From Parcubacteria group bacterium (GTDB taxonomy: Bacteria; Patescibacteriota; Patescibacteriia; Magasanikbacterales; GCA-002688135), in the NCBI GenBank assembly GCA_002688135.1, contig NZCD01000031.1, positions 4,544 through 68,543 on the forward strand: a DNA stretch of 64,000 bases, written 5' to 3'. The stretch's first letter is position 1; every line of letters begins with the position of its first letter. This document shows, one piece after another, positions 34,270-51,512 of the stretch. The notes beneath the pieces were generated by a model. That model worked only from the letters and a program-made list of their open reading frames with translations, searched no databases and was not told where the DNA came from. A program made the translations under genes and the position numbers.

Positions 34270-34914
34270 ATGCACACAAAAGAACAACTCGAAGAAATCT
34301 ACGAACAAGTCCCGGCAACATACTGGGACGATTCGTATGCTAACAATCGAATGCAGAAACTGTATTATGATATGCGATTCAAACATGTGAATCGTATGCT
34401 CGCAGACGTTCCAGAAGCGGGAAGAGTTTTGGATGTTGGATGCTCATCAGGATTTTCGTTGAGCCACTACTCCAAGGCGCGCCCTGATATTCATTATGCT
34501 GGAGCAGATGTTGCGGAACATCATATTGCATATGCAAAACAAGAGCGTCCGCAGTTTACATTTGCGCATGCTCCAGCAGAAGCTCTACCATTTGAGGAAA
34601 ACACATTCGACGCAGTCACGATGCTGGATGTAATAGAGCATGTTGTTGATTTGGATAAAACTCTTTCAGAAGTAAAACGTGTATTAAAACCAGGAGGAAG
34701 TTTCATTGTATTTGTTGTTGAAGAACATCATGTGGTATTCCAAGTGATTTGGTGGTTCTGGTTAAAAACAAAAGGAAAAGTTTGGGAGGAAGCACATTTG
34801 CGAGATTATGATAAGAAGAGTTTGATTGCTGATTTGGAAAAAGCTGGATTTACAATTGATGAATTTAAAAGATCGCATGGGACGACATGTCTCATTGTGA
34901 AGGCAATATGTTGA
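34270..34914 (+). CDS. Class-I SAM-dependent methyltransferase
   Basis: VLDVGCSSGFS (motif I) and LKPGGSFIVFV. Confidence 0.75.
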   Translation: MHTKEQLEEIYEQVPATYWDDSYANNRMQKLYYDMRFKHVNRMLADVPEAGRVLDVGCSSGFSLSHYSKARPDIHYAGADVAEHHIAYAKQERPQFTFAHAPAEALPFEENTFDAVTMLDVIEHVVDLDKTLSEVKRVLKPGGSFIVFVVEEHHVVFQVIWWFWLKTKGKVWEEAHLRDYDKKSLIADLEKAGFTIDEFKRSHGTTCLIVKAIC

Positions 34915-37517
34915 CGATCGTCATTCCTTGTTACAACGAAGAAGATAATATTCCAGGATTAAAGACCATTCTAGAACCAGAGCTCAAAGCTCTGGATCTT
35001 GATTATGAGATTGTGGCGATCGATGACGGAAGCATAGATAGTACGCAGGCACGCTTATATGAAAGTGATGTAGAAAATTTACGAGTCGTTCAGCATTTCA
35101 AAAATGGGGGAGTCGGCGCTGCAATCAGAACAGGAATTGCACACGCGCAAGGAGATCAAATTGTATTGCTGGATTCTGACATGACATTTCATCCAAAGTA
35201 TATTAAAGATTTAAAAGAGAGATACGACCAAGGTGATGTAGAAGCTGTGATAGGATCGCATGGGTTGGCTGGATATGCAGATGACATTCCAAAATGGCGT
35301 GTAGGGGTAAGCAAGGCAGCGAATCTTGCATACTCGCTTGCGGCTGGAACACGAGTCCATGGAATAAGTTCCATTTTCAGAATAATGGATGCAGAAGCAG
35401 CAAGACGAGTAAAACTCGAAACAACAAGTTTTGATACTCCAACAGAATTATTTTTCAAAATGCATTTCGATGGATCACGATATGTGGAAATCCCAACACC
35501 AATCGGCAATCGTGAATTCGGATCATCAAAATTAGATTACAAAAAAGAAATCCCTCGCCACATGAAATTACTTTCGAGAGTATTTGGGTGGCGACTCAAG
35601 TCTAAAAAAAAAGCGATAAGTGCCAAAGGCACTTGTCGTCCCGGCGAAGGCCGGGATCCAGTGAGGAAACCACATAAGCTTGCATGGCTGGTAGCGCTCG
35701 CAATTGTTGCGCTCTATGCACTCCCACACGTTCTCATCCCTCAATGGCAAGCAGCTGCTGGAATTGAAGGATATCACCCATACTCGCTAAATGTTCCTAT
35801 ATTAGATGACGTAGCAGCATACGGAACAAGAATGCGCGAGGTGTTTGATGGACACATCGCGGACGGAGATGCATATCTCGCAGAATATAAAAATCATGAC
35901 ACAGCTTGGGGAAATATCGCACTAGCTTTTATATTAGGATTACCTGGACTGATCTTAGGATTAACTGATCCCACAAACTTATTCCTATTTTATTCAGTCA
36001 TATTTCCAGCCCTAGCTTTTTTCGTACTATACAAACTCTCATACAAAATACTCGGAAAGCGAGAAATTCCAGCGGTACTGCTCGCACTTGTCACAACGAT
36101 ATTCCCCAACATCCTCATTGCAATCCGCGCAGGATTATCTAACCCTTCGCTCTTCCACCCATTTCAATTTGTCGCCACCGCATTTGATCCAGCACTCACC
36201 CGAAGCTTCATACCATCACCAGGAATAATAATTTGGTTTGGATTCATGTATATGCTGTATCGTGTGGTGGTCGAAAAAAGAAAACAAGATATCATGAAGG
36301 CAGGCCTGCTCTTAGGCGCGCTATTTTATGTCTACTTCTACTATGCTGCATTTGCAGCATTCACAACAATCATAATCACCGCACTACTGTATTTCAGAAA
36401 ACGAGCGCATGAAACAATGTTGGTGGGCATAACCGGTCTTATTGTCGCATTACCATATTTCATCAAAACATTTAGTTTACAGGCACAACCATACTATCAC
36501 GCAATGTCAGAGCGAGTTGGGTTAGTATTCGGAAGAACATTTGATCAGTCATCTTACAAAACCATTCTCATCACATTATTTGTGATTGCTATCGCCGGTA
36601 TTGTCATCAAAAACAAAAATAAAGTAACGTTTCTTGCAGGAGCTTTATTGCCAATTGGAATCGTATTAAATCTTCAATTGTTACTCGGATTCAACCCACA
36701 ACCAGATCATTGGGGATCTCGCGTAAACGTTTACATGCTTGTCTGGACAATTGGTGTCGTTACATACGCTATCTACCACAAAATAAAACCAGATAAGAAT
36801 TGGAAAAAAGCGGAGCGACTTTCCATGCTTGCGGTGATCTTACTATTGTTGGGAAGTGCATTTCACATACATCTCAACGAAAGAAAAGTAACTGCAGCTC
36901 GCTATACAATCGCGCCAGATATTCAGGAATCATTTGCATGGATCAATGAGAATGTAGATAAAGATAGCGTGATAATCTCACCATCAACCAGAACAAGTAC
37001 CTACACACCATTCTTCACACATGCAAATGTATATGTACCCCTCGCATGCTACACCGTCGCAGATCACGATGAAGTTATAGAAAGATACAACTACACTCGT
37101 CATCTATTTCGCGTGACACAGGAAATGACAAACAACACTCTCAAAGGTTCATACAACGAGTTCGAAAATCCGGTGCGTGCAATTGATTTGGATAATATTT
37201 ATACGGTATTTTGTGATACATTAAGAACACGCTACGGAAAGGACTACACAAATTCAGGAAGTGAAAGAGTATTGCCAGAAAAAGAAGAGAAGCAAATTCA
37301 GGATAGCTACGACAGTATACAGCTTTCAGGAATAGTAAAGCTCCCACATCAAGCAAACTACATCTATAATGGCCCGCATGAAAAATTCCTGGGAAATTTC
37401 AATCCAGATGAATGGGATAACATCGAACAAGTATATAGCGAAGGCCAAGTAGACATCTATAAAATCCTGGATCCCGCCGAAGTTTATGCTGGCGACAGCG
37501 AGGCAGTGCGGGAATGA
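34887..37517 (+). CDS. GT2 glycosyltransferase (DPM1-like) fused to a large polytopic membrane domain with a C-terminal extracytoplasmic domain
   Basis: N-terminal LTIVIPCYNEEDNI, VAIDDGSIDST and LDSDMT. After aa ~250 the linker AISAKGTCRPGEGRDPV is encoded by a family-C half element. About 13 TM helices and a ~250-aa soluble tail follow. The membrane part is paralogous to the 42373 protein. The start may instead be 34908 (MLTIVIP). Confidence 0.65.
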   Translation: MSHCEGNMLTIVIPCYNEEDNIPGLKTILEPELKALDLDYEIVAIDDGSIDSTQARLYESDVENLRVVQHFKNGGVGAAIRTGIAHAQGDQIVLLDSDMTFHPKYIKDLKERYDQGDVEAVIGSHGLAGYADDIPKWRVGVSKAANLAYSLAAGTRVHGISSIFRIMDAEAARRVKLETTSFDTPTELFFKMHFDGSRYVEIPTPIGNREFGSSKLDYKKEIPRHMKLLSRVFGWRLKSKKKAISAKGTCRPGEGRDPVRKPHKLAWLVALAIVALYALPHVLIPQWQAAAGIEGYHPYSLNVPILDDVAAYGTRMREVFDGHIADGDAYLAEYKNHDTAWGNIALAFILGLPGLILGLTDPTNLFLFYSVIFPALAFFVLYKLSYKILGKREIPAVLLALVTTIFPNILIAIRAGLSNPSLFHPFQFVATAFDPALTRSFIPSPGIIIWFGFMYMLYRVVVEKRKQDIMKAGLLLGALFYVYFYYAAFAAFTTIIITALLYFRKRAHETMLVGITGLIVALPYFIKTFSLQAQPYYHAMSERVGLVFGRTFDQSSYKTILITLFVIAIAGIVIKNKNKVTFLAGALLPIGIVLNLQLLLGFNPQPDHWGSRVNVYMLVWTIGVVTYAIYHKIKPDKNWKKAERLSMLAVILLLLGSAFHIHLNERKVTAARYTIAPDIQESFAWINENVDKDSVIISPSTRTSTYTPFFTHANVYVPLACYTVADHDEVIERYNYTRHLFRVTQEMTNNTLKGSYNEFENPVRAIDLDNIYTVFCDTLRTRYGKDYTNSGSERVLPEKEEKQIQDSYDSIQLSGIVKLPHQANYIYNGPHEKFLGNFNPDEWDNIEQVYSEGQVDIYKILDPAEVYAGDSEAVRE
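35634..35659. repeat. Family-C half element (TTGTCGTCCCGGCGAAGGCCGGGATCC) lying in-frame inside a CDS
   Basis: Exact GGCGAAGGCCGGGATCC core at the GT2/membrane domain junction of the 34887..37517 ORF. Confidence 0.65.
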
Positions 37518-37520
37518 CAT

Positions 37521-38480
37521 ATGAAAAAAGTCGCACTCAACGTAAATTTTGATTCCCTATATTTTCCACTTTCAATAGATCGGAAAAGAAATTTAGATCC
37601 AACATTTTTTAAAGTTGCAGATAGATTTTTTGAGATGGCAAAAAAATATGACTTCAAGTTTTCCATTTATGTGATTGGAAGGGATTTGGAAAATGAGCGT
37701 GTTGCAGATCAAGTAAAAAAATGGCACGAGGCTGGACATGAAATCGGAAATCATTCTTGGACACATCACGGAAATCTCGGCGCAACAGAACCACAAAAAC
37801 AAAAAGATGAAATTATGCGAACGCATGAAAGAATTACAGAAGTGATTGGAGAAGAACCGAAAGGATACATTTCACCAACATGGAGCATGAGCCCCACATC
37901 AATTCAGACATTATTAGATTTGGGATACATATACGATACTTCTGCATTTCCATCACCAGTTATGTTGGCAGCAATTGCCAAGTTAAAATTCAATTCAAGA
38001 ACAGACCAAAAATTCGATGCAAACTTCATGTCACGAAATGACAAACGAGTATTATTATATGGAACAAGAAAACCATACTTGATAAGACCAGAAAAACTAC
38101 ACAAACCAAACACAGAAGGATTGCTCATGCTGCCAGTCCCAACTGTCACACCGATGCGGCTCCCAGTCTGGCATACCATGGCATTCATGTGGCCTTTAAA
38201 AATTCATCTCTGGGCGCTCAAACAAGCAATGAAAAAAGATGGATTCTACTACATCATGCATCCTGCTGATATTGCGAATTATGAAGAAGATTTTGATCCT
38301 GCTATTGTAAAAGAGTATAAAGACGAGCTCGCAGTATTTGAAAGAATGTCAGACACCATCGAAAAGAAAATGTATCTATTCGAATCTGCAATCAAAACAA
38401 TGTCGACAAACGCAAAACTGGTAACTGTTCGTGAGGTAGCTGAAGACATCCTAAAAGAAAAAAAATATGCACAAGGATAA
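37521..38480 (+). CDS. Polysaccharide deacetylase (CE4 / NodB-homology)-like protein
   Basis: HEIGNHSWTHH matches the CE4 motif-2 (H-S/T-x-x-H) zinc ligands. The other motifs are divergent. Confidence 0.45.
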   Translation: MKKVALNVNFDSLYFPLSIDRKRNLDPTFFKVADRFFEMAKKYDFKFSIYVIGRDLENERVADQVKKWHEAGHEIGNHSWTHHGNLGATEPQKQKDEIMRTHERITEVIGEEPKGYISPTWSMSPTSIQTLLDLGYIYDTSAFPSPVMLAAIAKLKFNSRTDQKFDANFMSRNDKRVLLYGTRKPYLIRPEKLHKPNTEGLLMLPVPTVTPMRLPVWHTMAFMWPLKIHLWALKQAMKKDGFYYIMHPADIANYEEDFDPAIVKEYKDELAVFERMSDTIEKKMYLFESAIKTMSTNAKLVTVREVAEDILKEKKYAQG

Positions 38481-39243
38481 ACTTCGCATAGCAATCTTCA
38501 CAGAACAAGACTACGCATTTCTATTTCCCGCATGGAAAAAGTTTTTAGATTCAGAAGAAAGCTATCAGGTGGTCGGAATTTTCGTATTTCCTAATTTGCT
38601 CGGCAAACACAAAGGGCTACAGGTCCCACTTTACTATCTCAAAACATTTGGAATTATCACGGTATTGAAATTAATTTGGATTACAACGGTCGCAACATTC
38701 AAGCGATATTTCACCGATGGCCCACATTCATACAAAGATCTCGCACATAGACATTCAGCTGCATTTGAAAAACATTCAAATCCAAATAAACAAAATGTCA
38801 TAGATCGAATGAAAGAGCTCGACGTTGATATTATACTTTCAACTTGCGGCTATATTTTCAAAAAGAAAATTCTCGAAGCCCCAAAAATCGGAGTGATAAA
38901 TAAGCACGCGGGACCACTCCCATCTTACAGAGGATTGATGCCGGTTTTCTGGACACTACTTGAAGCAAAACAAAAGGTAGGTGTAACAATTCATTTTATG
39001 GATGAAAAGATTGATAAAGGAACTATGATTCTTCAGCACAACTACAAACAGGATTTTAAAACGGTTGAAGAAGCCTACACGCAAGTATACAAAGATTTCC
39101 CGAAGATGATGTGGGACGCGCTGGACATCGTGCAAGCCGGTGGACCATATCCAAAATACCCAGAACGCGATCAATCCTACTTCTCACTCCCAACCCGAAA
39201 CGACAACAAATGGCTTAAAAAGCAGGGTAAACGCTTTATTTAG
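38467..39243 (+). CDS. Formyltransferase (Fmt/ArnA-N/PurN fold); likely sugar N-formyltransferase
   Basis: INKHAGPLPSYRGLMPVFWTLLE...GVTIHFMDEKIDKGTMILQ matches the N10-formyl-THF transferase catalytic core (N..H..SLLP.G....W.....G.T.H..D...D.G.I..Q). Overlaps the upstream gene. Confidence 0.8.
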   Translation: MHKDKLRIAIFTEQDYAFLFPAWKKFLDSEESYQVVGIFVFPNLLGKHKGLQVPLYYLKTFGIITVLKLIWITTVATFKRYFTDGPHSYKDLAHRHSAAFEKHSNPNKQNVIDRMKELDVDIILSTCGYIFKKKILEAPKIGVINKHAGPLPSYRGLMPVFWTLLEAKQKVGVTIHFMDEKIDKGTMILQHNYKQDFKTVEEAYTQVYKDFPKMMWDALDIVQAGGPYPKYPERDQSYFSLPTRNDNKWLKKQGKRFI

Positions 39244-39250
39244 CAAGAAA

Positions 39251-39280
39251 AATCCACTACGATATATGTGGGTTTTTTGA
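39251..39280 (+). terminator. Weak terminator-like hairpin followed by a T6 run
   Basis: CCAC...GTGG short stem and then TTTTTT, straight after the stop at 39243. Confidence 0.35.
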
Positions 39281-39309
39281 TTGACATTTTAGCCACAGAT
39301 GCTTATACT
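39281..39309 (+). promoter_or_regulatory. Consensus sigma70 promoter TTGACA - 17 nt - TATACT (TGcT-extended)
   Basis: Perfect -35 at 39281-39286, 17-nt spacer, and -10 TATACT at 39304-39309 preceded by GATGCT. Confidence 0.6.
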
Positions 39310-39480
39310 CTGAAGAATCTAGTAAGGAAATAACGTTCGGTAGATTAGGTTGATATTGGTCTTCAGTGCTGTGCATAAGCGAGAAGGCGATGTATGCGCA
39401 TCGCCGACGAGCTTTAAGCAGTACTGAAGAGGAAGAGCATCCTAAGATACCAACTTTATTTCCTTAATAGATTCTAGATT
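39310..39480 (+). promoter_or_regulatory. ~170-nt structured 5' leader (candidate cis-regulatory RNA) ahead of the methyltransferase gene
   Basis: CTTCAGTGCTG (39361-39371) pairs with CAGTACTGAAG (39419-39429) and encloses the GGCGATG-tatgcg-CATCGCC hairpin. No CDS; no tRNA-like features. Confidence 0.3.
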
Positions 39481-40101
39481 ATGCAAGACGCGATTCAAGT
39501 GCCAAAAAGCCATTATGACATGAAATATGACCACAAAGCGCGGTGGTTGTCGTATTGGTATCAGATTCAATTGGTGATGAGTTTCAAGCCTGAAACTGTG
39601 CTTGAGGTTGGCTTAGGAAATGCACTTGTGAGAAACTATTTAGTGAGGCAGGGGGTGCGTGTGACTACAATTGACATTGATGAAGAATTGCATCCAGATA
39701 TTCTTGGATCAGCCACAGACATTCCAGCAGGAGATAATACATATGATGTTGTGCTTGCAGGACAGATCATCGAGCATCTCCCATACGAAGACGCAAAAAA
39801 AGCAATGCGAGAAATTCATCGAGTTTGCGCAAAGGGTGCGATGATTTCAGTTCCGGATTCACGAAAGACATTATTCAAAGCAGGATTCCACATTCCAAAA
39901 ATTGGATGGAAAGATTTGTTTGTGAAAATCCCATCAGGAAAAGTTCATGAGTTTGATGGACAACATTATTGGGAAATAGGAAAGCGTGGGCATTCACTCA
40001 AAAAAGTTCGAAAGGATTTAGGAGATGCTGGCTTCACTATCGAATCAGACATGGTTCCAGCAGACGTTCCAACCAAACATTTTTTCAGATTGGAGAAGTA
40101 A
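39481..40101 (+). CDS. Class-I SAM-dependent methyltransferase
   Basis: LEVGLGNALV (glycine-rich motif I), DVVLAGQIIEHL and MREIHRVCAKGAMISVP blocks. Confidence 0.6.
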   Translation: MQDAIQVPKSHYDMKYDHKARWLSYWYQIQLVMSFKPETVLEVGLGNALVRNYLVRQGVRVTTIDIDEELHPDILGSATDIPAGDNTYDVVLAGQIIEHLPYEDAKKAMREIHRVCAKGAMISVPDSRKTLFKAGFHIPKIGWKDLFVKIPSGKVHEFDGQHYWEIGKRGHSLKKVRKDLGDAGFTIESDMVPADVPTKHFFRLEK

Positions 40102-40102
40102 T

Positions 40103-41236
40103 ATGAAATTATCCTACATCGCAAACATGAGGCTTCCATCAGACCGCGCACATGCATGGCAAATTATGCGCATGTGTCAGGCTTTTGCGAACAATAATCA
40201 TGATGTCACGCTCTACGTTCCAAAACGTAAAACAGATAGTGATAAAAATCCGTTCGAGTATTACAACTTACAACCAAATTTCAAAATCAAAAGAATTCCA
40301 GTCATTGATCTATTTCCTATCAAATGGATGCCACGCAAAATCGCGTACTGGGTAAACACATTCACGTTTTCAATCGGACTCATGTTCAAATTGGGAAAGA
40401 TGAAAAAAGGTATCGTATATTCCCGTGATCCATTCTCAACCTTCGCAATCGGAAGATTCGTGAAAGATTGGTGTTACGAAGTTCACGACTCCCCTAAAAA
40501 AACATTTCTCAATAAGATTCTCTTTGGCGGAATCAAGCATGTTGTTGCGACAAATACATGGAAAAGAAATCAGCTCGCTGATACTTTCAATCTAAACAAA
40601 GATGAAATGAACATCGCGCATCATGGGGTTGATGTAGATGTATTTGCAGAACTCCCTCAAAAGCATGAGGCATTTCGCGTAACAGGATTATCACCGCAAT
40701 ATAATCACGTGGTATACACAGGCCATTTATTTGAATGGAAGGGTGTATATGCACTAGCACGAGCTTCACGATTTCTCGATCAAAATACACGCGTTGTGCT
40801 GGTGGGAGGGACTCCAGAAGATGTAGAAAAGATGCAGGATTTCATCGATAGAGAGCAATTAGACCGCGTACAATTAACAGGTTTCAAACAGCGAGCCGAC
40901 ATGCTACACTATGTGGCTTGTGCTGATTTATTCGTCATTCCAACTTCAGCGAAATTCCAAATTGGAATGTATGAATCATCACCACTCAAGTTATTTGAAT
41001 ACATGGCAACTGGAAAACCTATTGTTGCGACAGACCTTCCAGCTATACGTGATATTGTAGATGAGACCATGGTAGAGTTTTGCGAACCGGACAAGGCTTC
41101 GCAGTTAGCACAAATCATCACGCAAACATTAGAACAACCATCACAACAAAAAATACAAACAGCTGCTGACTATGTGAAAAAGAATACATGGGAAGCACGC
41201 GCAAAAAAATTAGTAACATTCATACATGGAAAATAG
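40103..41236 (+). CDS. Glycosyltransferase family 4
   Basis: ESSPLKLFEYMATGKPIVATDLPAIRDIV (EX7E). The track start (40025) overlaps the upstream gene; the ATG at 40103 follows a GGAGAAG RBS and the upstream stop. Confidence 0.8.
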   Translation: MKLSYIANMRLPSDRAHAWQIMRMCQAFANNNHDVTLYVPKRKTDSDKNPFEYYNLQPNFKIKRIPVIDLFPIKWMPRKIAYWVNTFTFSIGLMFKLGKMKKGIVYSRDPFSTFAIGRFVKDWCYEVHDSPKKTFLNKILFGGIKHVVATNTWKRNQLADTFNLNKDEMNIAHHGVDVDVFAELPQKHEAFRVTGLSPQYNHVVYTGHLFEWKGVYALARASRFLDQNTRVVLVGGTPEDVEKMQDFIDREQLDRVQLTGFKQRADMLHYVACADLFVIPTSAKFQIGMYESSPLKLFEYMATGKPIVATDLPAIRDIVDETMVEFCEPDKASQLAQIITQTLEQPSQQKIQTAADYVKKNTWEARAKKLVTFIHGK

Positions 41237-42179
41237 CGAGCAATGCCCAGTATGCGCATCGACTGAAAGAACAGTTGTTGCAACCATCGGTGATTTAAAT
41301 AAACCGCTCACCAACGTGATTTGCGAATCATGTGGTTTGATTTTTATTACCCCGCGAAAACAAATCGCAGAAGTAGAAGAATTCCATGTAGAAGATTTTT
41401 TGAAAAATAAAGGATACGAAGAAGCTGATCACTTTGAACACAAATTGAGTGCATCAGAAATTCCAACGAAAAAACGCATCGCAGAAGTTATCATTCCTCA
41501 TATGCCAGGCGGGGGAACGGTGTTAGATGTTGGGTGTGGAATTGGAACGCTCGTAAGTATTTTGCTGGACCGAGGGTACAAGGCTGAAGGGATTGAATTA
41601 GCACGAATCGAGATTGAAGCAGCAAAGAAGTTCTATGATGTAGACCTATATTTGGGAAGCTTAAGAAAATACGCTACAGAACATCCGGAAAAGAAGTTCG
41701 ATATGATCGTTCTGCATCACACACTCGAACACATGACAGACCCACAAGGCGAACTACACTTCATGAAATCAATGCTATCTGAAAATGGAAAAATCTATAT
41801 CGGCGTACCAAATGTAACAAACATGAAAAAAAGACCAGAAGTCTATTTTGAATCAGGTCATGTTGTAACATACTCGCCGCGCTCGCTAGCTCACGCACTG
41901 GAAGCACAAGGACTATATCCATCATACTTCTCAACCAAGGCGGTGTATCCAGGAGGAATGGGTGTGATTGCTGGAACTAAGCCCGCAGACAACACAGCAT
42001 TATTACAAAAAGAAATGAAAGGTATGGGTCATCCAAAAGATGTGAAATATTACATCAAGAAAAAGGGTGCTCAATTTGCTACAGCTCGTGTCTGTCGAGA
42101 TATTGGATTATTCTTCATTCCGAAAAAAGCTCGAGTCAAAATAGGTCGGGCAATTTCAAATTGGATGAAAAATAGATAG
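41226..42179 (+). CDS. Class-I SAM methyltransferase with N-terminal Cys4 zinc-ribbon
   Basis: CPVCAS...CESCG zinc ribbon; VLDVGCGIGTL motif I; MLSENGKIYIGVP. Paralog of the 49228 gene. Confidence 0.75.
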   Translation: MENSEQCPVCASTERTVVATIGDLNKPLTNVICESCGLIFITPRKQIAEVEEFHVEDFLKNKGYEEADHFEHKLSASEIPTKKRIAEVIIPHMPGGGTVLDVGCGIGTLVSILLDRGYKAEGIELARIEIEAAKKFYDVDLYLGSLRKYATEHPEKKFDMIVLHHTLEHMTDPQGELHFMKSMLSENGKIYIGVPNVTNMKKRPEVYFESGHVVTYSPRSLAHALEAQGLYPSYFSTKAVYPGGMGVIAGTKPADNTALLQKEMKGMGHPKDVKYYIKKKGAQFATARVCRDIGLFFIPKKARVKIGRAISNWMKNR

Positions 42180-42180
42180 A

Positions 42181-42367
42181 CCACGAATGGTACAAATCAA
42201 ATACAAATCTACAAATCTCCGCTAAGTCACTAGGAGTGTCATCCCGGGCTTGATCCGGGATCCAAAGTTCGCAGCTGGATCCCGGATCAAGCCCGGGATG
42301 ACAGTCGGTCTGGTTGTTGCTAGACGAGCATTTGTAGATTTGTAGAAAATTTGTATTATTCGAGGGA
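42181..42367. mobile_element. Family-B MITE-like element (~187 bp) with ~37-bp terminal inverted repeats CCACGAATGGTACAAATCAAATACAAATCTACAAATC; carries a nested family-C palindrome
   Basis: Left TIR at 42181-42217 and right TIR at 42329-42367 (GCATTTGTAGATTTGTAGAAAATTTGTATTATTCGAGGG). The inner palindrome spans 42237-42303. Confidence 0.7.
42237..42303. repeat. Family-C-related perfect palindrome (TGTCATCCCGGGCTTGATCCGGGATCC ... GGATCCCGGATCAAGCCCGGGATGACA) nested in MITE B1
   Basis: 27-bp arms around a 13-nt spacer. Shares the TGTCATCCCGG / GGATCC cores with family C. Confidence 0.75.
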
Positions 42368-42372
42368 AAAAC

Positions 42373-44220
42373 ATGAAAAACCCACTAACAAACAAAACCC
42401 TACAAATAATCATAGCTGCGACACTCGCGGGGTTCTTTTTTATAGGAAGACATTTGACGATGTGGTGGTATCAGCTGCAGCAGGGCGCACCATTCAACTT
42501 TTTTACTTTTGAGCAAATCGATCCGCTTTCAAATCTCGCGCCTATTTTCAGACAGGTTTTGGATGGGGGGTTATATGTTACGGATGGACGAGTTTTGGAA
42601 TGGGTTGCAGGACCAAGTCTGTGGTCGATATTATCTCCAATAGTCGGATATCCAATTTTAGCTATCACACAAAACATATCTCTAACATTTTTGATTGGAA
42701 CATTACTATCAGCAGTCTTAACATTTATCGCAGCATACGCAATCGCAAAACATCTAACGAAAAATCACTGGTGGGCGATCTTATCATCATTTATATTTGT
42801 AAACGCAACACTCATTGTATTATTTATTCTGCCGATTGATATTGAAGGATTAAAAGTTCTAGCAAGATCATTTTGGCTAGGTTCACCTCCAGGAGATATT
42901 TTGATGAGTAGATATGTCAGTTTTTCAGTTTTCCCAACCTGGCCAGTATTTGTATTTTCATTACTTGGATTATTAAAACTTGCAGCAAACCCAACATCAA
43001 AAAAATGGTTCTGGTTCACCGCAATCTCGTGCGCAATGCTCACACACATGTATGTCACAGATGCGATGTACATTTTCGGCGGGATGGCATTAATGGTGGT
43101 TTGGTTCTTTTTACAAACAGATACACAACGAGCAAAAACATATCTTAAAACAATATTTCTTTCTACTGCATTATCAGCGCCATACATTTTCAATTATCTC
43201 TCAATCCAAGCTCTCCCGCATGCACAAGAGTTAGTTGAACGACTCGGCGCAGAATTCACACATAGTTTTCGTGTAAGCGCATGGCCACAATATTTGGTAA
43301 TGATAATTCTAGCCTACGGAGTTTGGAAATGGGGGAAAGCAGAAAACAGAACTCCAGAAGCAACAGTAATTGGATCTTTAGTTCTCGGTGGAATCGGAAT
43401 TTTGAACATGCAATTGATTTTGGGATTCAATCCACATCCTCCGGTTTGGCCTGTACATCAATTTTATTTAGGATATGCCGCAGCATTCCTTGTAATCGCG
43501 CATCTATTTATTACACATGGATTAAGATCAGCATGGCTTAAAAAAGCCGGAACAACAGTTTTAGTAATTGCATCAGTCGCAGTTATTGGACGAGCAATCC
43601 AAGCAGAATTTATTTCAGGGACACACTTTCAAGAATCATCAGTCATGCCAGAAAATATCCGAAACTCACTAGAATGGATTAACGATAATACACCAACAAA
43701 CAGTGTCGTCGCATCACCATCAGCAACAACAAATAGCTTAATTCCTGTATTTACCGGGGCACACTCAATCCAACCTCTTGCTGTTACCTCCGCCGCGCCA
43801 CTATCAGAAGTAGTTGGACGCTGGTTGACCATCTCAAAGCTCTATGGTATTCCTGAAACAACTCTGGTAACATCTCTGAAAAAAGAGCACACAGATATCG
43901 ACAATTTTGCTCTCGATTCAGAAAACGCAACTGCCATATTCCTCTTCGATACATTCTTCTGGAAAAAGGGATTGGGCGCATTCGATGAAGGCCGACAATT
44001 ATTCATTCCAGATGAAGCGATCGAAAAGATTATTGCCGAATATCAAGCGCTTCCAGAGGGTGAAGAATTGCTTAAAACATATCGAATGGATTATCTATAT
44101 GTTGGACCATACGAACGGGCACTTGTCATGAAAGACCTGGACTACGAATTTCTTAAAAAAGTCTATGACGAAGATGACGTTCAAATTTATAAAATCAATC
44201 AATCATTTCTAGAATTATAG
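42373..44220 (+). CDS. Polytopic membrane protein with C-terminal extracytoplasmic domain; paralog of the membrane moiety of the 34887 GT2 fusion (candidate GT-C-like transferase/polymerase)
   Basis: Shared blocks: LGGIGILNMQLILGFNPHPPVW vs LPIGIVLNLQLLLGFNPQPDHW; PENIRNSLEWINDNTPTNSVVASPSATTNS vs PDIQESFAWINENVDKDSVIISPSTRTST; and C-terminal QIYKI vs DIYKIL. Confidence 0.55.
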   Translation: MKNPLTNKTLQIIIAATLAGFFFIGRHLTMWWYQLQQGAPFNFFTFEQIDPLSNLAPIFRQVLDGGLYVTDGRVLEWVAGPSLWSILSPIVGYPILAITQNISLTFLIGTLLSAVLTFIAAYAIAKHLTKNHWWAILSSFIFVNATLIVLFILPIDIEGLKVLARSFWLGSPPGDILMSRYVSFSVFPTWPVFVFSLLGLLKLAANPTSKKWFWFTAISCAMLTHMYVTDAMYIFGGMALMVVWFFLQTDTQRAKTYLKTIFLSTALSAPYIFNYLSIQALPHAQELVERLGAEFTHSFRVSAWPQYLVMIILAYGVWKWGKAENRTPEATVIGSLVLGGIGILNMQLILGFNPHPPVWPVHQFYLGYAAAFLVIAHLFITHGLRSAWLKKAGTTVLVIASVAVIGRAIQAEFISGTHFQESSVMPENIRNSLEWINDNTPTNSVVASPSATTNSLIPVFTGAHSIQPLAVTSAAPLSEVVGRWLTISKLYGIPETTLVTSLKKEHTDIDNFALDSENATAIFLFDTFFWKKGLGAFDEGRQLFIPDEAIEKIIAEYQALPEGEELLKTYRMDYLYVGPYERALVMKDLDYEFLKKVYDEDDVQIYKINQSFLEL

Positions 44221-44221: not shown

Positions 44222-45160
44222 ATGGAACGAAAACGAGTTTTAGTAACAGGAGGAGCAGGATATGTGGGATCAGTATTGGTCCCGGAACTTTTGAGTAAGG
44301 GATTCGAAGTGACTGTTCTTGATAACCTATCATACAATAATGGTCGCTGCATTTTACAAAATTTCTACAGCAATCATTTTCAGTTTGTGAAAGGGGATAT
44401 ACGAGATCGCGTTTTGGTAGATAAACTCGTTGGTCAGGCAGACCACATCATCCACCTAGCAGCGATTGTGGGATATCCGGCATGTCGCAAAGATGAACGT
44501 TTAGCCCAAGAAGTAAATGTGATCGGAACAGAAAATATTGCACGTGCAGTGCAGCCTCATCAAACAATTCAATTCGCTTCAACAGGTTCTGTATACGGAG
44601 CGATTGGAGAAACATGTACGGAAGAGACTGTGGCGAATCCACTCACGATCTACGGAAAAAATAAACTCGATGCTGAAAACATTTTGAAAGAACACTGCAC
44701 ACCAATCATCTATCGCTTCGCAACTGCGTTTGGATTGGCCGGTCGCTTACGAATGGATTTGATGATTAATGATTTTGTATATCAAGCAATTCATACGAAA
44801 CACCTAATCGTGTATGAAAAGCATTTCCGACGTACATTCATTCATGTGAGAGATATTGCGCGTGTGTTTGTGCATGGTCTGGAAAAGTATGAAGAAATGA
44901 AGGGACAAACATACAATGTGGGACACGAAACAATGAACTACACAAAAGAAGACATTGTGAACAAAATTCGAGCACGCGTGCCATTTTATCTTCACTTTGC
45001 GGAGTTTGCGAAAGATCAAGATCAACGAGACTACGAAGTAAACTATCAGAAAATTCGTGCAACAGGATTTGAAACAAAAATTTCAATGGACACAGGATTA
45101 CGTGAGTTGATGGACGCGCTAGAAATCGTCACTATCCCTAATCCATACTCAAATATATAG
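44222..45160 (+). CDS. NAD-dependent sugar-nucleotide epimerase/dehydratase (extended SDR)
   Basis: VLVTGGAGYVGSVLV (GxxGxxG); STGSVYG; YGKNK (YxxxK). Confidence 0.8.
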   Translation: MERKRVLVTGGAGYVGSVLVPELLSKGFEVTVLDNLSYNNGRCILQNFYSNHFQFVKGDIRDRVLVDKLVGQADHIIHLAAIVGYPACRKDERLAQEVNVIGTENIARAVQPHQTIQFASTGSVYGAIGETCTEETVANPLTIYGKNKLDAENILKEHCTPIIYRFATAFGLAGRLRMDLMINDFVYQAIHTKHLIVYEKHFRRTFIHVRDIARVFVHGLEKYEEMKGQTYNVGHETMNYTKEDIVNKIRARVPFYLHFAEFAKDQDQRDYEVNYQKIRATGFETKISMDTGLRELMDALEIVTIPNPYSNI

Positions 45161-45389: not shown

Positions 45390-46358
45390 ATGAATTTAAA
45401 AAACTATTACTTAGGAAAGCGAGTCATGATCACCGGCGGTGCCGGATTTTTGGGCAGTGAGATTATCAAACAACTCGCAGGGTTTGATTGTGAAATTATT
45501 GTACCTCGAAAAAAGAATTACGATTTAACAAGTCAGGAAGATGCGTTGGCATGTGTACGACAATCTAAACCCCATGTGATTATTCATGCAGCAGCATGGT
45601 ACGGAGGCCCTCCAATTCACGAAGCATACCCTGCAAAAATGTTTTACGAAAACACGATGATGGGAATGAATGTTATGCATGCATCACATCTGTGCGATGT
45701 AGAAAAAGTTGTGATCATCGGATCAGATTGCGCATATCCCGGATATCTCGGAAAAGAAGTATTATCAGAAGATGATTTATTTTCTGGAAAACCACATGCA
45801 TCAGCAATTGATTACGGAATGGTAAAACGATTCCTTTCGGTGCAAGCATGGGCATACAACAAACAATACGGATTAAATGCAAACTTCCTCATTCTCACAA
45901 ACATGTACGGAGAAGGGGACAACTTCAATCCAGAATCATCACATGTTGTTGGCGCACTTATTCGAAGGTTCACTGAAGCAGTAATAGAAAATAAAGATGA
46001 AGTAGAAGTTTGGGGATCAGGAAAACCAACACGAAACTTTTTGTATGTGAAAGATGCAGCGCAAGGTGTGATTCGTGCGACAGCGTTATATGATTCTCAC
46101 GAACCAATCAACATTACAACAGGACAAGGAAACTCAATTAAGGAGCTTGCTGAAACAATTGCAGAAGTCACAGGATTCCGCGGACGACTAAAATGGCTCA
46201 CAGAAAAACCAGACGGACAAATGAAAAAAGTTCTGGATGTTTCAAGAATGAAAGAACATTTGAATTGGCAGCCGGAATTTACACTGAAACAAGGATTAGG
46301 AAACACTGCGAATTGGTATAAGGCGAATAAGGAGGTCGCAGACGCTAAAAAGAAATAG
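45390..46358 (+). CDS. fcl: GDP-L-fucose synthase (GDP-4-keto-6-deoxy-D-mannose 3,5-epimerase/4-reductase)
   Basis: VIIHAAAWYGGPPIHEAYPAKMFYENTMMGMNVMHASHLCDVEKVVIIGSDCAYP and NMYGEGDNFNPESSHVVGALIRRF align block-for-block with Fcl/WcaG (VYLAAAKVGG..NTYPADFIYENL..NVIHAAH..V.KLLFLGSSCIYP; NLYGPHDNF.P.NSHVIPALLRRF). 322 aa. Confidence 0.85.
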   Translation: MNLKNYYLGKRVMITGGAGFLGSEIIKQLAGFDCEIIVPRKKNYDLTSQEDALACVRQSKPHVIIHAAAWYGGPPIHEAYPAKMFYENTMMGMNVMHASHLCDVEKVVIIGSDCAYPGYLGKEVLSEDDLFSGKPHASAIDYGMVKRFLSVQAWAYNKQYGLNANFLILTNMYGEGDNFNPESSHVVGALIRRFTEAVIENKDEVEVWGSGKPTRNFLYVKDAAQGVIRATALYDSHEPINITTGQGNSIKELAETIAEVTGFRGRLKWLTEKPDGQMKKVLDVSRMKEHLNWQPEFTLKQGLGNTANWYKANKEVADAKKK

Positions 46359-46560
46359 CCCGCGAATATTACAAATCAACTACAAATCTACAAATCCTTG
46401 ACTAGTAGCTCTGTAAATAGGCTGTCATTGCGAGCGCTTTAGCGTGGCAATCTGAAGCCAGATTGAGATTGCCACGCTAAAGCGCTCGCAATGACGTGTT
46501 GGTCGAGTGGTTGCTAAACGAGCATTTGTAGATTTGTAAAAGATTTGTACTATTCGTGGG
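46359..46560. mobile_element. Family-B MITE-like element (~200 bp); inner part is a TGTCATTGCGAGCGCTTTAGCGTGGCAATC ... palindrome
   Basis: TIRs CCCGCGAATATTACAAATCAACTACAAATCTACAAATC / GCATTTGTAGATTTGTAAAAGATTTGTACTATTCGTGGG. Inner 28-bp perfect inverted arms at 46424-46496. Confidence 0.7.
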
Positions 46561-46571
46561 TCAAAAAGGTT

Positions 46572-47285
46572 ATGCAGCCAAAAGTTTCAATCATGATTCC
46601 AATATGGTCCGAGGTAGATTCTCTCAAAGTGGTAGTCGACGGACTCTACGAACGAATCGGAGATTACATACATGAAATATTTTTCATCGTCGCGCCGCAG
46701 TCATCTGCTGCGTGTTTTAATATGTGCCAAAGATTGGCGTCGGAACATCCAGAAATACAAGTGATGATTCAAAAAGTATGCCCGGGGTTGGGACATGCAT
46801 ATAAACAAGTATTTCCACATGTCACAGGAACACACATGCTAGTCATTGATGCAGATGACGAAATGGATTTAGACACAGTCCCTAAAATGGTAGCTGCCGC
46901 AGAACAAGGATATGATTTAGTTTTACCTACGAGATGGATGCCAGGAGGAGGAGTAAAAGGATACGACACCATGACGTATATTTTAAATAGAGGATTCCAA
47001 ACAATTTTCAGATTAGTATTTCTAACACCCGCACGCGATCTCACATACGGTTTCAAACTATTCAATACAAGACTCATCAATGAAGTTGATTGGTGGGGAG
47101 AATGGCATGAGATCGCCATGGAAACAACACTCAAGCCACTCAAGCTCGGATACAAATACATTGAAATACCAACCTGGTGGAAAGCGCGCACACAAGGAGT
47201 TTCAAAAATAAACACTCTCAAAAGAATGCGATACGTAAAATTCGCACTACGTATTAGATTCGCAAATATCAAAAAGCGTATTTAA
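46572..47285 (+). CDS. GT2 glycosyltransferase (DPM1-like)
   Basis: VSIMIPIWSEVDSL and LVIDADDEMD (DxD). The track start (46545) was trimmed to MQPKVSIMIP. Confidence 0.65.
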   Translation: MQPKVSIMIPIWSEVDSLKVVVDGLYERIGDYIHEIFFIVAPQSSAACFNMCQRLASEHPEIQVMIQKVCPGLGHAYKQVFPHVTGTHMLVIDADDEMDLDTVPKMVAAAEQGYDLVLPTRWMPGGGVKGYDTMTYILNRGFQTIFRLVFLTPARDLTYGFKLFNTRLINEVDWWGEWHEIAMETTLKPLKLGYKYIEIPTWWKARTQGVSKINTLKRMRYVKFALRIRFANIKKRI

Positions 47286-47881: not shown

Positions 47882-49222
47882 ATGAACTTGTTACGAAACT
47901 TATTTCGATCAAAACGTGAGACAAGTATATTCTTTTTTGCGCTAGCCGTCCAGTCTATTATTCTCTATCTCACAATGAAAACCGCTTCTGGTGGTTTTTT
48001 GTGGACATCAGATGCAGAACTCTATTTTGATTTAGGACGAAACCTCCTCGAGACAGGAGGATTTTACATGCATCCAGATCTCGACCCGCAAACCATCCGA
48101 ACGCCACTGTATCCATTATTTGTCGCAGGATTATACGGACTCACACACTCACTATTTTTTGTCATCGCAATTCAAAATATAATCGCTGCGTATGTACTAG
48201 TGATTATCTATCGCATTGGTGCAACACTTGTTTCAGAAAGAGTAGCATTAATCGGCACAGTATTATTTATGCTCGAAGCTCGCCGATTGACCAACGCATC
48301 ACAACTCATGTCAGAAACACTTTTCATGCTATTTTTCGCTCTAAGTATCTACTGGCTGATAATATATCTCAAAACAAAACAAGACAGAAAACTAATCATC
48401 GGAAGCGCGATTGCTGCAGGACTCGCTATTATGACACGACCATTTCTGATCCCAGTCATTCCACTTTTTGTATTACTCATCCTATTTGTTTTTTGGAAAA
48501 AGAAGTTTGCTATCAAACATGCTGCGCTCTATGTGATTCTCGTAATCGCTGTCATCATGCCATGGTCCGCCCGAAATTATTATCACTTCAAAACAATCAA
48601 TCCAATCTCAACTGCTGGTGCAAATGCATATTTAACAGCAGCACCACGCTTCCTGGAATATTATGAACCAGGAGAAGAAAGGTATGCAGGGCTCGTGACA
48701 CAGGCAGTGGGAGATCTCAATTACACGGGACTACCACATCTCACACCAGAAGAATCATTTGTGAGATTCGGAATTTTCGAATTTCAATATCAAGATTATC
48801 TAACCACGCACGCACGCGAAATCATCTCTCAAGATTATCTTTTATTCGGACGTGTTATCGCACAAAAGATGGGAGTATTTTTCATAGAAAGTTCTGCATC
48901 AAGATCCTATAGCATACTATTCCACCAACTAAATCCACCACAACAAATCTTCTATCCATTCCTATATTTCGGCGGGCGAATCTGGTGGGCAATTATGTTC
49001 TTGCTGATGGCATTTGGATTCTGGAAATATCTTGCCACTCACAAAGACAAAGCTTCGCGAGGTATCATAGCAACAATAATCATCATGATGTTATTCTTCG
49101 CTTTTATATCATCAATGAATAAAGATACTCCGCGATTACGAATTCCAATCACACCATTTATAACCTTGTTTGCGGCCTACGGTGCAACTATTGCCATGAA
49201 GTATAAATTGTGTAAGGATTAG
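47882..49222 (+). CDS. Polytopic membrane glycosyltransferase, GT-C-like (ArnT/PMT_2/GT39-83-like)
   Basis: About 11-12 TM helices. First extracytoplasmic loop TSDAELYFDLGRNLLETGGFYMHPD resembles the ArnT/PMT acidic first-loop motif. No soluble domain. Confidence 0.45.
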   Translation: MNLLRNLFRSKRETSIFFFALAVQSIILYLTMKTASGGFLWTSDAELYFDLGRNLLETGGFYMHPDLDPQTIRTPLYPLFVAGLYGLTHSLFFVIAIQNIIAAYVLVIIYRIGATLVSERVALIGTVLFMLEARRLTNASQLMSETLFMLFFALSIYWLIIYLKTKQDRKLIIGSAIAAGLAIMTRPFLIPVIPLFVLLILFVFWKKKFAIKHAALYVILVIAVIMPWSARNYYHFKTINPISTAGANAYLTAAPRFLEYYEPGEERYAGLVTQAVGDLNYTGLPHLTPEESFVRFGIFEFQYQDYLTTHAREIISQDYLLFGRVIAQKMGVFFIESSASRSYSILFHQLNPPQQIFYPFLYFGGRIWWAIMFLLMAFGFWKYLATHKDKASRGIIATIIIMMLFFAFISSMNKDTPRLRIPITPFITLFAAYGATIAMKYKLCKD

Positions 49223-49227: not shown

Positions 49228-50154
49228 ATGAAAACCATTCCAGAAACAATAGAAATGGAGTCAGTAAAACAGTGTCCAATCTGCGCGCATACAACATTCA
49301 GCAAAATCGCAGACAAAGGTATTGTCGAAAAAGCTGGCGAACCATACGCAATGACAAATGTGATTTGCACACGATGTTCATGTGTATTTTTAAATCCACG
49401 ACCAACAGAAAATGGATATGCGGAATTCTATAAAACGCTCTACGTTTCAGATCGAGGAGAATCAACAAGAGAGGGTGAGGGTATTGTGATGAACAAAGAT
49501 ACAAGCAAAAAAACAGGATCAATCGCGCTCGCGTTGGAACCGCACATTAAGAAAGGGGATCGCATTTTGGTGATCGGCGGAGGATTGGGAATGGCATCGG
49601 CACATCTGCGAGATTATTTTGAAGCACATGTAGAAATGATTGAACCCTCACAAGAACAAGCAGGGCATGCATCAAACAAATACAATCTTGAAGTTCACAA
49701 CATGGATTGGGAAACATTTACAAAAACGCATTCTGAAAAAAAATACGATGCAATTGTCATGCATCATGTACTCGAACACTTTCCGCATCCCGTAACAATG
49801 CTCACAGAAGCGCGAAGCTATCTCAAAACAAATGGAGTATTATATATCGAAGTACCAGACGCAAATGACTACAAAAAACCAAAAGCACATTTTTTCGATT
49901 TACTTCATCCAATTAGTTTCTCACCATCTTCTATGTTTTGGACATTGCACTACGCAGGCCTCAAAGCAATTTGGAAAAATGAAAACAAAAAAACAAGATT
50001 ACAAATTATTGTACAAAAAGCAGAAGATGCTCAAGACAAGCAAAACATCCTATCTGCAAAAAAATTGGGTACACCCATAACAGTGTGCTATGGGCTCTAC
50101 AGAACAATGTGGGAGATCGCATACAACATAAAGAACTTTAAGAAAGCTGCATGA
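49228..50154 (+). CDS. Class-I SAM methyltransferase with N-terminal zinc-ribbon (paralog of 41226)
   Basis: CPICAH...CTRCSC; ILVIGGGLGMA; LKTNGVLYIEVP. Confidence 0.75.
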   Translation: MKTIPETIEMESVKQCPICAHTTFSKIADKGIVEKAGEPYAMTNVICTRCSCVFLNPRPTENGYAEFYKTLYVSDRGESTREGEGIVMNKDTSKKTGSIALALEPHIKKGDRILVIGGGLGMASAHLRDYFEAHVEMIEPSQEQAGHASNKYNLEVHNMDWETFTKTHSEKKYDAIVMHHVLEHFPHPVTMLTEARSYLKTNGVLYIEVPDANDYKKPKAHFFDLLHPISFSPSSMFWTLHYAGLKAIWKNENKKTRLQIIVQKAEDAQDKQNILSAKKLGTPITVCYGLYRTMWEIAYNIKNFKKAA

Positions 50155-51512
50155 ATCCGACCTTACTACAAATAATCCGAGGAATCGGAGCAATAGCAGT
50201 TTCAAATGTGGTGGGACGATTAAGCTCATTTACAACAGTCGTTCTACTGACGACTGCGTTGTCATTATACGAATATGGTTTGGTGATGTTGGCTCTTGCA
50301 ATAACCGGGCCAGTTTTGGCAATCATGTCTCTCGGGTTGGATGATATGATTCTAGCCGACACATCACGCTATCTCGCAGACGGAAAAAGATCACACGCAA
50401 AAAGAATGCTCGTGGGGTATCTATCAGTAAAAGCAGTTCTGCTTGTCGCGCTAATTATAAGTGGTTATTTCTTCCGTGATTTTCTCGCGACAAAATACGG
50501 AACACTCATTACAGACGCTTCACTCATCCTATTACTCTATGTAGTTCTTCAGTATTTTAGAACCTCATACAACACAATTCTACACATCCACAAAAGATTC
50601 AAAACCCTTGCATTCTGGAATTCAATCGAGCCAATCGCCCGACTTATATTCGTGGCTGTAGCATTTGCAGTAGGAGGAATTAATGTGATGGTTGCGCTAG
50701 CGTCATATGTCGCATCTTCTGCGGTGACTATTGTAGGAGCAACACCACAACTTCTTGCAATAGCAAAGACATATCTCAAAGTTCCAAAACTACAACAACC
50801 ACTTTTTAGAATCGCCATGAAAGCTCATGGAAAATGGCAATCCGCACTTTCAATGCTAGGAAGTTTCACAGGTGCAGCCGGAGTATATATCATCAAATAT
50901 TTACTCTCTACAGAAGCAGTTGCTATTTTCTCGGTCGCACAAAGCATGTTCTCTGCGATCGCATCACTCACTCCAATTAAAACTGTCATGGTGCCATTCA
51001 TATCACAATGGTCTACAAATAAAGAACGTCTCAATCAGGTGCTGAAAAAAATTACCAAATATTCCATGTTGATGTACGGGGTAATTATGATAGCTGCAAT
51101 TACTATAGGTCCAGAATTGATACATGTATTCTTTCCAAAATACACAGCCTCTATTCTTGTCTTTCAGATACTTTCTATTCGGTTGTTACTCAACACATTT
51201 TCAATTACGCAATCACCGACGCTCACTGCACTACGTGATCAAAAGTTCATGTCCGGTTTGAGCATATTCAAATTGATTATGCTAGTACTCCTAGCACCTC
51301 CACTGATTATGAAATTCGGAGTGATTGGGGCAGTTCTCGAAATTATCATCACAACTGCAATAATAGAACTTATTCGAGAATGGAGACTACGAACCCGCTA
51401 TGGAATCAAAACAACAACAATTCAGTCATTTTTCACTTTCGATCATATCGATAGGATGATTCTAAACCGAATGAAACAGTTCGGTCATATCATCAAGCAG
51501 AAACTTAAATGA
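50151..51512 (+). CDS. Polysaccharide/oligosaccharide flippase-like membrane protein (MOP superfamily, Wzx-like)
   Basis: 453 aa with ~12-14 TM helices. N-terminus LLQIIRGIGAIAVSNVVGRLSSFTTVVLLT is typical of the Wzx/PST family. Overlaps the upstream stop. Confidence 0.5.
   Translation: MNPTLLQIIRGIGAIAVSNVVGRLSSFTTVVLLTTALSLYEYGLVMLALAITGPVLAIMSLGLDDMILADTSRYLADGKRSHAKRMLVGYLSVKAVLLVALIISGYFFRDFLATKYGTLITDASLILLLYVVLQYFRTSYNTILHIHKRFKTLAFWNSIEPIARLIFVAVAFAVGGINVMVALASYVASSAVTIVGATPQLLAIAKTYLKVPKLQQPLFRIAMKAHGKWQSALSMLGSFTGAAGVYIIKYLLSTEAVAIFSVAQSMFSAIASLTPIKTVMVPFISQWSTNKERLNQVLKKITKYSMLMYGVIMIAAITIGPELIHVFFPKYTASILVFQILSIRLLLNTFSITQSPTLTALRDQKFMSGLSIFKLIMLVLLAPPLIMKFGVIGAVLEIIITTAIIELIREWRLRTRYGIKTTTIQSFFTFDHIDRMILNRMKQFGHIIKQKLK

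Follow-up and report, generated by a model that had tools for sequence, protein, structure and literature searches.

Two paralogous proteins of a Patescibacteria envelope glycan locus carry a previously unannotated GT-C-fold domain and are candidate extracytoplasmic glycosyltransferases

A 64,000-nucleotide stretch of DNA from a Parcubacteria group bacterium (assembly GCA_002688135.1, contig NZCD01000031.1, positions 4,544 to 68,543 of the forward strand; here referred to as the window) encodes two large membrane proteins, which we call A and B. Protein A (34887..37517, + strand; 876 residues, with a possible alternative start at ATG 34908) joins a glycosyltransferase family 2 (GT2) domain to a membrane domain, and protein B (42373..44220, + strand; 615 residues) is a free-standing paralog of that membrane domain. 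Our analysis supports the conclusion that both carry a previously unannotated GT-C-fold domain, which would represent a new family of familiar mechanism. We estimate a probability of about 75% that A and B are extracytoplasmic GT-C glycosyltransferases that use a lipid-linked donor made by a fused or separate GT2, according to the full mechanism set out below.

An earlier note on this DNA, made from the sequence alone, had claimed that the C-terminal ~600 residues of A are related to B. BLASTP bears this out, aligning residues 306 to 860 of A with residues 49 to 608 of B over 584 columns at 25% identity (E value of 2e-32). The three conserved blocks that the note had named all lie inside this alignment (LNLQLLLGFNPQP in A and LNMQLILGFNPHP in B; DIQESFAWINENVDKDSVIISPS and NIRNSLEWINDNTPTNSVVASPS; VDIYKI and VQIYKI), and its own concern that the blocks might prove insignificant in a proper alignment can be set aside at this E value. 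Considering that polytopic membrane proteins can align by composition only, we compared the soluble C-terminal domains separately. These still align on their own (E value of 7e-24, 29% identity), indicating that the match between A and B is not an artifact of membrane composition. A and B are paralogs, and a search of the window with the family hidden Markov model returned these two members and no others.

The domain layout of A was derived from its open reading frame (ORF) and an AlphaFold model (mean predicted local distance difference test score [pLDDT] of 84.5, predicted template modeling score of 0.71). As the earlier note had proposed, the N terminus is a GT2 domain: residues 10 to 172 match PF00535 (E value of 3.9e-23), and DPMS, ArnC, and GtrB, all polyprenyl-phosphate sugar synthases, occupy ranks 1 to 3. 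This cytoplasmic domain (residues 9 to 203, with motifs AIDDGS and LLDSDM) is followed by a long helix at residues 218 to 246 (together 34911..35624, +) and then by a basic linker of low model confidence (residues 247 to 263; 35625..35675, +), which has 5 Lys or Arg among its 17 residues and pLDDT values below 50 at residues 247 to 260. In the L009 ortholog of A (55% identity), the protein is encoded by two separate genes, and the break falls exactly at the linker. The membrane domain proper (residues 264 to 668; 35676..36890, +) has 11 predicted transmembrane (TM) helices and leads into an extracytoplasmic alpha/beta domain, assigned from the secondary structure of the model (residues 669 to 876; 36891..37514, +). 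The corresponding domain of B comprises residues 419 to 615 (43627..44217, +). Four residues of this domain are near-invariant in the family, namely, W435, E479, R483, and Y574 in B and W685, E729, R733, and Y825 in A.

Model helices, hydropathy, and the positive-inside pattern yield a topology of 11 TM helices, N-in/C-out, with the ~200-residue domain outside. The short loops LGKR, VEKR, FRKR, IKN, and KPDK are placed in the cytoplasm, and loop 1 contains 10 acidic residues and 3 basic ones. The GT2 domain and the basic linker can only be cytoplasmic, which places loop 1 and the C-terminal domain outside. The earlier note, which had called for such a topology prediction, had expected ~12 to 13 TM helices and a ~200-residue extracytoplasmic tail; the tail stands, but the helix count is 11.

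Proteins of the GT-C class are recognized by their helix arrangement, by an essential Asp in the first long outside loop, which contains two helices, and by a gating loop between distal helices (PMC10265970). When two structure models were compared with known structures by two methods, the top 17 to 19 matches were all GT-C proteins, and the TM core has the GT-C arrangement. The best structural match is AftA, and AftD and AftB match too. The unlabeled figures listed for GT-C proteins are 17.8 for STT3B, 16.3 for Pmt2, 16.1 for Pmt4, 15.8 for AglB, 14.3 for ALG12, 13.7 for AftD, 13.7 for PglB, 13.3 for ArnT, and 12.8 for DPY19. The earlier note had allowed that the domain might belong to a nontransferase family such as a transporter; transporters reached a Foldseek template modeling score of only ~0.1, and this candidate was ruled out.

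Profile-profile comparison points in the same direction. With hhalign, the family aligned to the PMT_2 proteins of this and related loci at 79% probability when 18 sequences were used and at 92% (E value of 5.7e-7) when 168 were used, over ~200 columns covering TM1 to TM7. Other polytopic proteins of the window served as controls and gave 2.5% (four Wzy_C paralogs), 0.2% (MBOAT), and 0.0% (Wzx), indicating from sequence profiles that the remote homology to PMT_2 is specific. A Wzy/WaaL-type enzyme was rejected on the 2.5% control value. In Pfam and NCBIfam scans the membrane domain had no match above threshold, searches of PDB sequences with the protein (phmmer) and with the family profile returned no match, and PF13231 (PMT_2) matches neither A nor B and only 1 of 18 members, at an E value of 0.005. 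Membership of PMT_2, AftA, or AftD by sequence model was accordingly rejected in the Pfam and PDB-sequence searches.

The earlier note had suggested looking for a conserved acidic residue in the first outside loop, and one is present. In A this loop (LDDVAAYGTRMREVFDGHIADGDAYLAEY; 35805..35885, +), the proposed catalytic site, contains D307-D308, D321, D328, and E333, and in B (IDPLSNLAPIFRQVLDGGLYVTDGRVLEW; 42520..42600, +) it contains D50, D64, D71, and E76. Among 168 members, the position of D50/D307 (B/A) is Asp or Glu in 156, that of D71/D328 is conserved in 156, and that of E76/E333 is conserved in 155; the consensus motif of the loop is LDEvxxYGxRxREVMDGHxxDGDPYLAEYK. In the models, D50/D307 sits at the start of the loop-1 helix, and in both hhalign alignments (18 and 168 sequences) it falls on the invariant D44 of the PMT_2 proteins. 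On these sequence grounds we propose D307/D50 as the candidate catalytic base.

Further outside-face residues are invariant or nearly so in the family. In A these are R543 and G545 in the loop after TM7, and N595, Q597, G601, H608, and W609 (LNLQLLLGFNPQPDHW; 36513..36713, +), conserved in 89 to 98% of the 168 members. The near-invariant equivalents in B are R290 and G292 after TM7 and N345, Q347, G351, and W359 within LNxQxxLGFNPxPxxW. The loop after TM7 (residues 533 to 553 of A and 280 to 300 of B) has a short helix and contains the invariant R543/R290 and G545/G292, and we infer that R543/R290 might be a ligand of the lipid phosphate. A and B both retain all of the near-invariant residues of the family.

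The type and placement of the GT2 link the family to lipid-linked donors. A GT2, a GtrA flippase, and a GT-C protein make up a known three-component system (PMC11127046), and the GT2 of A is of the DPM1/GtrB/ArnC type that supplies the synthase component of such extracytoplasmic systems. Of 36 family genes from nonredundant loci, 16 have such a GT2 either fused (5) or directly adjacent (11), compared with 42 of 305 control genes (14%; odds ratio of 5.0, P = 3.7e-5). Two members, P0134 and P0143, are fused to a GtrA_DPMS_TM flippase domain. Downstream of B, a stand-alone GT2 of the dolichyl-phosphate/undecaprenyl-phosphate hexose transferase type (46545..47285, +; PF00535, with NCBIfam matches to AglJ and dolichyl-phosphate hexose transferase) is probably the donor synthase for B, a candidate pairing suggested by position.

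Paralogy, fold, conserved loop residues, GT2 type, and the pattern of fusion and adjacency together point to the following mechanism. The cytoplasmic GT2 domain of A would load a sugar from a nucleotide sugar onto polyprenyl phosphate, and the lipid-linked sugar would then be flipped across the membrane. At the outer face, the GT-C domain of the same polypeptide would transfer the sugar to an acceptor. The conserved Asp that opens the first outside loop (D307 in A, D50 in B) would serve as the catalytic base, and other conserved positions of the outside face, among them R543/R290, would hold the lipid phosphate. B would act likewise, drawing its donor from a separate GT2, probably that at 46545. 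The earlier note had already read the membrane domain as an outside-face transferase paired with a GT2, and the GT-C fold, the Asp aligned with PMT_2, and the GT2 fusion and adjacency support that reading.

Several points weigh against this mechanism. The alignments behind the structure models were shallow (18 and 22 sequences), and the loop after TM7, the candidate donor gate, is just ~21 residues long, which is short compared with that of PglB or ArnT. No GT2 was detected within 3 kb of about 40% of the family genes in the loci sampled, in a search that used five GT2 queries and included many short contigs. No GtrA-type flippase was found in the window, either by tblastn with the GtrA domains of relatives or as a small ORF with four TM helices, and the sole flippase-like gene there is of the Wzx type (50151..51512). 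Finally, the fusion partner can also be a methyltransferase (P0044 and P0045) or a glycosyltransferase family 4 (GT4) domain (P0052), so that such partners are not exclusively from the donor pathway.

We also weighed other roles for a GT-C-fold protein. A and B could be processive extracytoplasmic polymerases of the Emb/Aft kind, building a homopolymer from polyprenyl-phosphate sugar. The best structural match is the arabinan-priming AftA, with AftD and AftB matching as well, and a locus with at least four GT-C genes and several genes for GT2s of the polyprenyl-phosphate type looks more like an assembly line than like the site of one decoration. We nevertheless consider a polymerase unlikely. 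The sequence contains no feature that tells a processive GT-C enzyme from one that makes a single addition, AftA adds just one residue (PMC10265970), and backbone synthesis would follow the conventional route through the GT4 and the Wzx/Wzy set that are also encoded in the conserved operon. An oligosaccharyltransferase of the STT3/AglB/PglB type would instead transfer a preassembled oligosaccharide from polyprenyl diphosphate to protein or another acceptor. This is very unlikely given the monophosphate-donor context, the occurrence of the WWD[YWFN]G motif in 0 of 168 members, and the lack of any STT3 (GT66) match in Pfam scans; an STT3-type enzyme as such was ruled out on the absence of the WWDYG motif. 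Least probable of all is a noncatalytic GT-C-fold protein (a scaffold, a factor that binds or flips the lipid-linked sugar, or a PIG-U-like subunit that aids the fused GT2), because the outside-face polar residues D50, D71, E76, R290, N345, Q347, W435, E479, and R483 are conserved at 84 to 99%, the loop-1 Asp coincides with the PMT_2 Asp in the alignment, conservation extends to the C-terminal outside domain, and fusion of some members to a GtrA domain argues that the GT-C domain is not itself the flippase.

The preferred reading, an outside-face transferase served by a GT2, applies to a large family. The 18-member profile found 3,555 representatives of 50%-identity clusters at E values of ≤1e-3, 1,166 of them at ≤1e-30. 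Named database copies are few, are annotated "hypothetical protein" or, when fused, "glycosyltransferase family 2 protein," and in both cases come from Patescibacteria group metagenome-assembled genomes (MAGs); a word-indexed protein search with the 615-residue protein and later with the profile returned three close relatives only. The one Pfam family to which part of the sequence is drawn is DUF6798 (PF20604, 61 positions), which matches 10 of 18 members at the WINxN...SVxxSP block (residues 678 to 701 in A). These partial matches cover profile positions 2 to 27 and remain below threshold (best E value of 8.9e-5; ~13 to 19 bits against a gathering score of 26.9), short of membership. In the literature on DUF6798, on GT-C/ArnT-like enzymes in Patescibacteria or the candidate phyla radiation (CPR), and on new GT-C families, we found nothing on this family.

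A copy of A that is 100% identical over its length occurs in a Tara Oceans marine metagenome (P0004). Named relatives come from Patescibacteria, Parcubacteria, Giovannonibacteria, Sungiibacteriota, and Saccharibacteria MAGs, with single relatives in a Woesearchaeota, a WOR-3, and a TA06 MAG; this list was drawn from two A-type peptide patterns, a narrower alignment, and is biased toward A-type relatives. The family resides mostly in Patescibacteria-type MAGs. The closest MAGs (L008, L009, L011, L013, and L015) were deposited as "uncultured Gammaproteobacteria bacterium," an unconfirmed label that may be a placeholder; all other named relatives are of the Patescibacteria type.

A and B lie in a block of genes on the same strand. 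Its order is a methyltransferase (34270), A (34887), a CE4 polysaccharide deacetylase-family protein (37521), a formyltransferase (38467), a methyltransferase (39481), a GT4 (40025), a methyltransferase (41226), B (42373), a short-chain dehydrogenase/reductase (SDR; 44222), a GDP-fucose-synthase-like SDR (45390), and the polyprenyl-phosphate-type GT2 (46545). Orthologs of A are present in loci L001, L007, L010, L011, L014, L038, and L039. A core consisting of the GT2-fused A gene and, farther on, methyltransferase, GT4, methyltransferase, B, and SDR genes recurs in L001, L010, L011, L038, and L039, with A-type identities of 35 to 85%, and A and B therefore represent two orthologous lineages that have been kept together. 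As both belong to one conserved operon, each most likely carries out one of two steps in the decoration of a single surface glycan.

Within this core, the S-adenosylmethionine (SAM)-dependent methyltransferase at 39481..40101 (+; PF08241) has orthologs in L001, L003, L007, L009, L010, L011, L038, and L039, and the cytoplasmic GT4 of GT-B fold (40025..41236, +; PF13692 and PF00534) has orthologs in the same loci. The second SAM methyltransferase (41226..42179, +; PF13489, E value of 1.8e-20), which begins with a Cys-rich segment, likewise has orthologs. The SDR sugar epimerase/dehydratase (44222..45160, +; PF01370) always comes next after the B paralog, in the same order in L001, L038, and L039. 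The GDP-L-fucose-synthase-like SDR (45390..46358, +) scores 271 bits against NCBIfam NF047922, where the cutoff of 500 is not reached.

The two genes that follow A are more variable. The CE4 protein (37521..38480, +; PF01522, E value of 1.5e-18; PDB 3qbu, E value of 1e-12) is probably cytoplasmic, since its sequence shows neither a signal peptide nor a TM helix. Its gene overlaps by 14 nucleotides that of the formyltransferase (38467..39243, +), which is of the fmt/ArnA-N/sugar N-formyltransferase type (PF00551, E value of 2.5e-19; NCBIfam fmt and ArnA) and whose PDB matches are ArnA (9e-10), PseJ, and sugar N-formyltransferases. In L007, L008, L009, and L011, the CE4 gene comes after the fusion gene and the CE4-formyltransferase pair recurs; both genes are absent from L010 and L039. 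In L038 (6221-8992), a single 923-residue protein combines a CE4 ortholog (phmmer E value of 9e-93) with a carbamoyltransferase (Carbam_trans_N/C); its gene lies immediately upstream of the GT2-GT-C fusion, the counterpart in the window being a separate formyltransferase gene. Deacetylation followed by reacylation of an amino sugar fits these CE4, formyl, and carbamoyl variants at least as well as a strict Arn-type scheme does. In L001 and L002, whose B paralog has 84% protein identity, a 177-residue DUF3228 gene (L001 6416-6949) stands between the formyltransferase and the next methyltransferase; it is absent from the window, which has only a 237-nucleotide gap there (39244-39480).

The remainder of the locus is of similar character. 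Nearly all scanned genes of the window relate to envelope glycan synthesis, and an Rfam scan of the 64 kb found no tRNA, rRNA, or other family at threshold. The earlier inventory of the locus proved correct by Pfam: the third GT2-membrane fusion, placed at 26649, is an ORF (26616..28841) joining GT2 to PMT_2, for which ATG 26649 is an internal alternative start, and the separate ArnT/PMT-like protein at 47882 (47882..49222) is a PMT_2 protein. The C terminus of the 26616 ORF (28760-28841) is a Ser/Arg-rich imperfect repeat (SRLSSQANRLSSRANSLSSRAKSRDPS) that is absent from aligned PMT_2 relatives. Fusions are common in loci of this type, as seen for methyltransferase with GT2 (488 residues; window 25143-26609), with PMT_2 (654 residues; L003 8018-10000), and with GT4 (713 residues; L010 2948-6426).

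At least six SAM-methyltransferase genes are present (34270, 39481, 41226, 47282 on the - strand, 49228, and 25143), a number that suggests heavily methylated sugars; those at 41226 and 49228 carry an N-terminal CxxC...CxxC segment resembling a zinc ribbon. An MBOAT gene (30155-31657, -) and a DUF1574-like gene (31705-32721, -), for which an AlgI/AlgJ-type role in acylation can be suggested, lie upstream of the fusion gene, as they do in L007, L008, L009, and L011. Between that pair and the fusion are NUDIX and hexapeptide genes in L008, L009, and L011 and also a methyltransferase gene in L008 and L009. The locus further contains three UDP-GlcNAc 2-epimerase (WecB/Epimerase_2) genes (22144-23292, 54480-55874, and 57477-58601), a TagF-like glycerophosphotransferase (51721), a membrane-anchored HAD protein (53251), and a cytidylyltransferase (61734). 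Four Wzy_C/O-antigen-ligase-like paralogs of 723 to 880 residues begin at 4526, 6804, 9072 (with C-terminal TPR repeats), and 13550 and span 4526-16192 (+), and such a series of four is unusual. It is interrupted by a 738-residue ORF (11271-13490, -) that has no Pfam match and is preceded by a Big_1/invasin Ig-domain protein (2921-4525).

A more far-reaching reading joins A, B, the PMT_2 proteins, and the several polyprenyl-phosphate-type GT2s into an extracytoplasmic line for glycan assembly or decoration that is specific to Patescibacteria-type cells. The fused A would install an unusual N-modified amino sugar, de-N-acetylated by the CE4 protein and then N-formylated (carbamoylated in some lineages) before or after attachment to the lipid. 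We offer this reading tentatively and regard it as doubtful. If it were true, these ultra-small, host-attached bacteria would tailor their surfaces chiefly through this family, which would form a new CAZy GT-C family of more than 3,500 sequence clusters.

The mechanism proposed for A and B is not new, and the value of the assignment lies in annotation and in opening up CPR glycobiology. The surface chemistry of Patescibacteria/CPR-type genomes is almost unknown, and the assignment gives a common, conserved envelope gene of these organisms, so far labeled hypothetical across a big family, a function that can be tested. D307/D50, D328/D71, E333/E76, and R543/R290 are named as residues for mutagenesis. 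A synthase and transferase on one polypeptide is also convenient for biochemistry, as donor loading and transfer should both reside in one protein.

Among known systems, the Arn pathway for lipid A aminoarabinose uses ArnA, ArnC, ArnD, and ArnT to formylate the sugar, load it on the lipid, deformylate it, and transfer it, and related amino-sugar systems exist in Francisella and mycobacteria. The ArnC-like GT2, CE4 protein, and formyltransferase of the window recall this set, but the resemblance is at the family level: scores fall far below equivalog cutoffs (57 bits versus 529 for ArnC), the CE4 protein has no specific ArnD match, and neither an ArnB-type (DegT-type) aminotransferase among the window ORFs scanned nor ArnE/F in the window was found. 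The hosts also probably lack lipid A. The CE4-carbamoyltransferase fusion of L038 fits deacetylation and reacylation better than formyl protection, and with L010 and L039 lacking both CE4 and formyltransferase, we downgraded a strict Arn-type formyl-protection cycle.

The three-component systems (GtrA/GtrB/GtrC of Shigella and Salmonella phages, CsbB/GtcA/YfhO, and GT136 of Citrobacter [PMC11127046]) are like the family in pairing a GT2/DPM1-type synthase of polyprenyl-phosphate sugar with an outside-acting GT-C protein. Relatives fused to a GT2 or GtrA domain, and the location of the genes inside a Wzx/Wzy-type glycan locus, add to the likeness. Unlike in those systems, the GT-C domain of the family matches none of their Pfam or NCBIfam GT-C models, A combines synthase and transferase on one polypeptide, and no GtrA was found in the window; their hosts are enterobacteria or Firmicutes, whereas those of the family are Patescibacteria-type MAGs.

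AftA, the galactan 5-O-arabinofuranosyltransferase of Mycobacterium tuberculosis (GT85; PDB 8IF8), resembles the family in structure only, with 8 to 13% identity and no detectable sequence similarity. No phmmer or profile match to AftA, AftD, or Emb was found in the PDB, and GT-C_AftD matched 1 of 18 members at an E value of 0.09. AftA has two extra N-terminal helices (13 TM helices versus 11), and its donor, decaprenyl-phosphate-arabinose, is made by the phosphoribosyl pyrophosphate route and not by a GT2. The PMT_2 (PF13231) ArnT/PMT-like proteins of the locus (47882..49222 and the C-terminal half of 26616..28841) differ from the family in length (~450 versus ~600 residues) and are unrelated to it in sequence in the C-terminal half and outside domain. 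Over TM1 to TM7, the two are remotely homologous with the loop-1 Asp aligned, and PMT_2 proteins are likewise found fused to a GT2 in the same locus.

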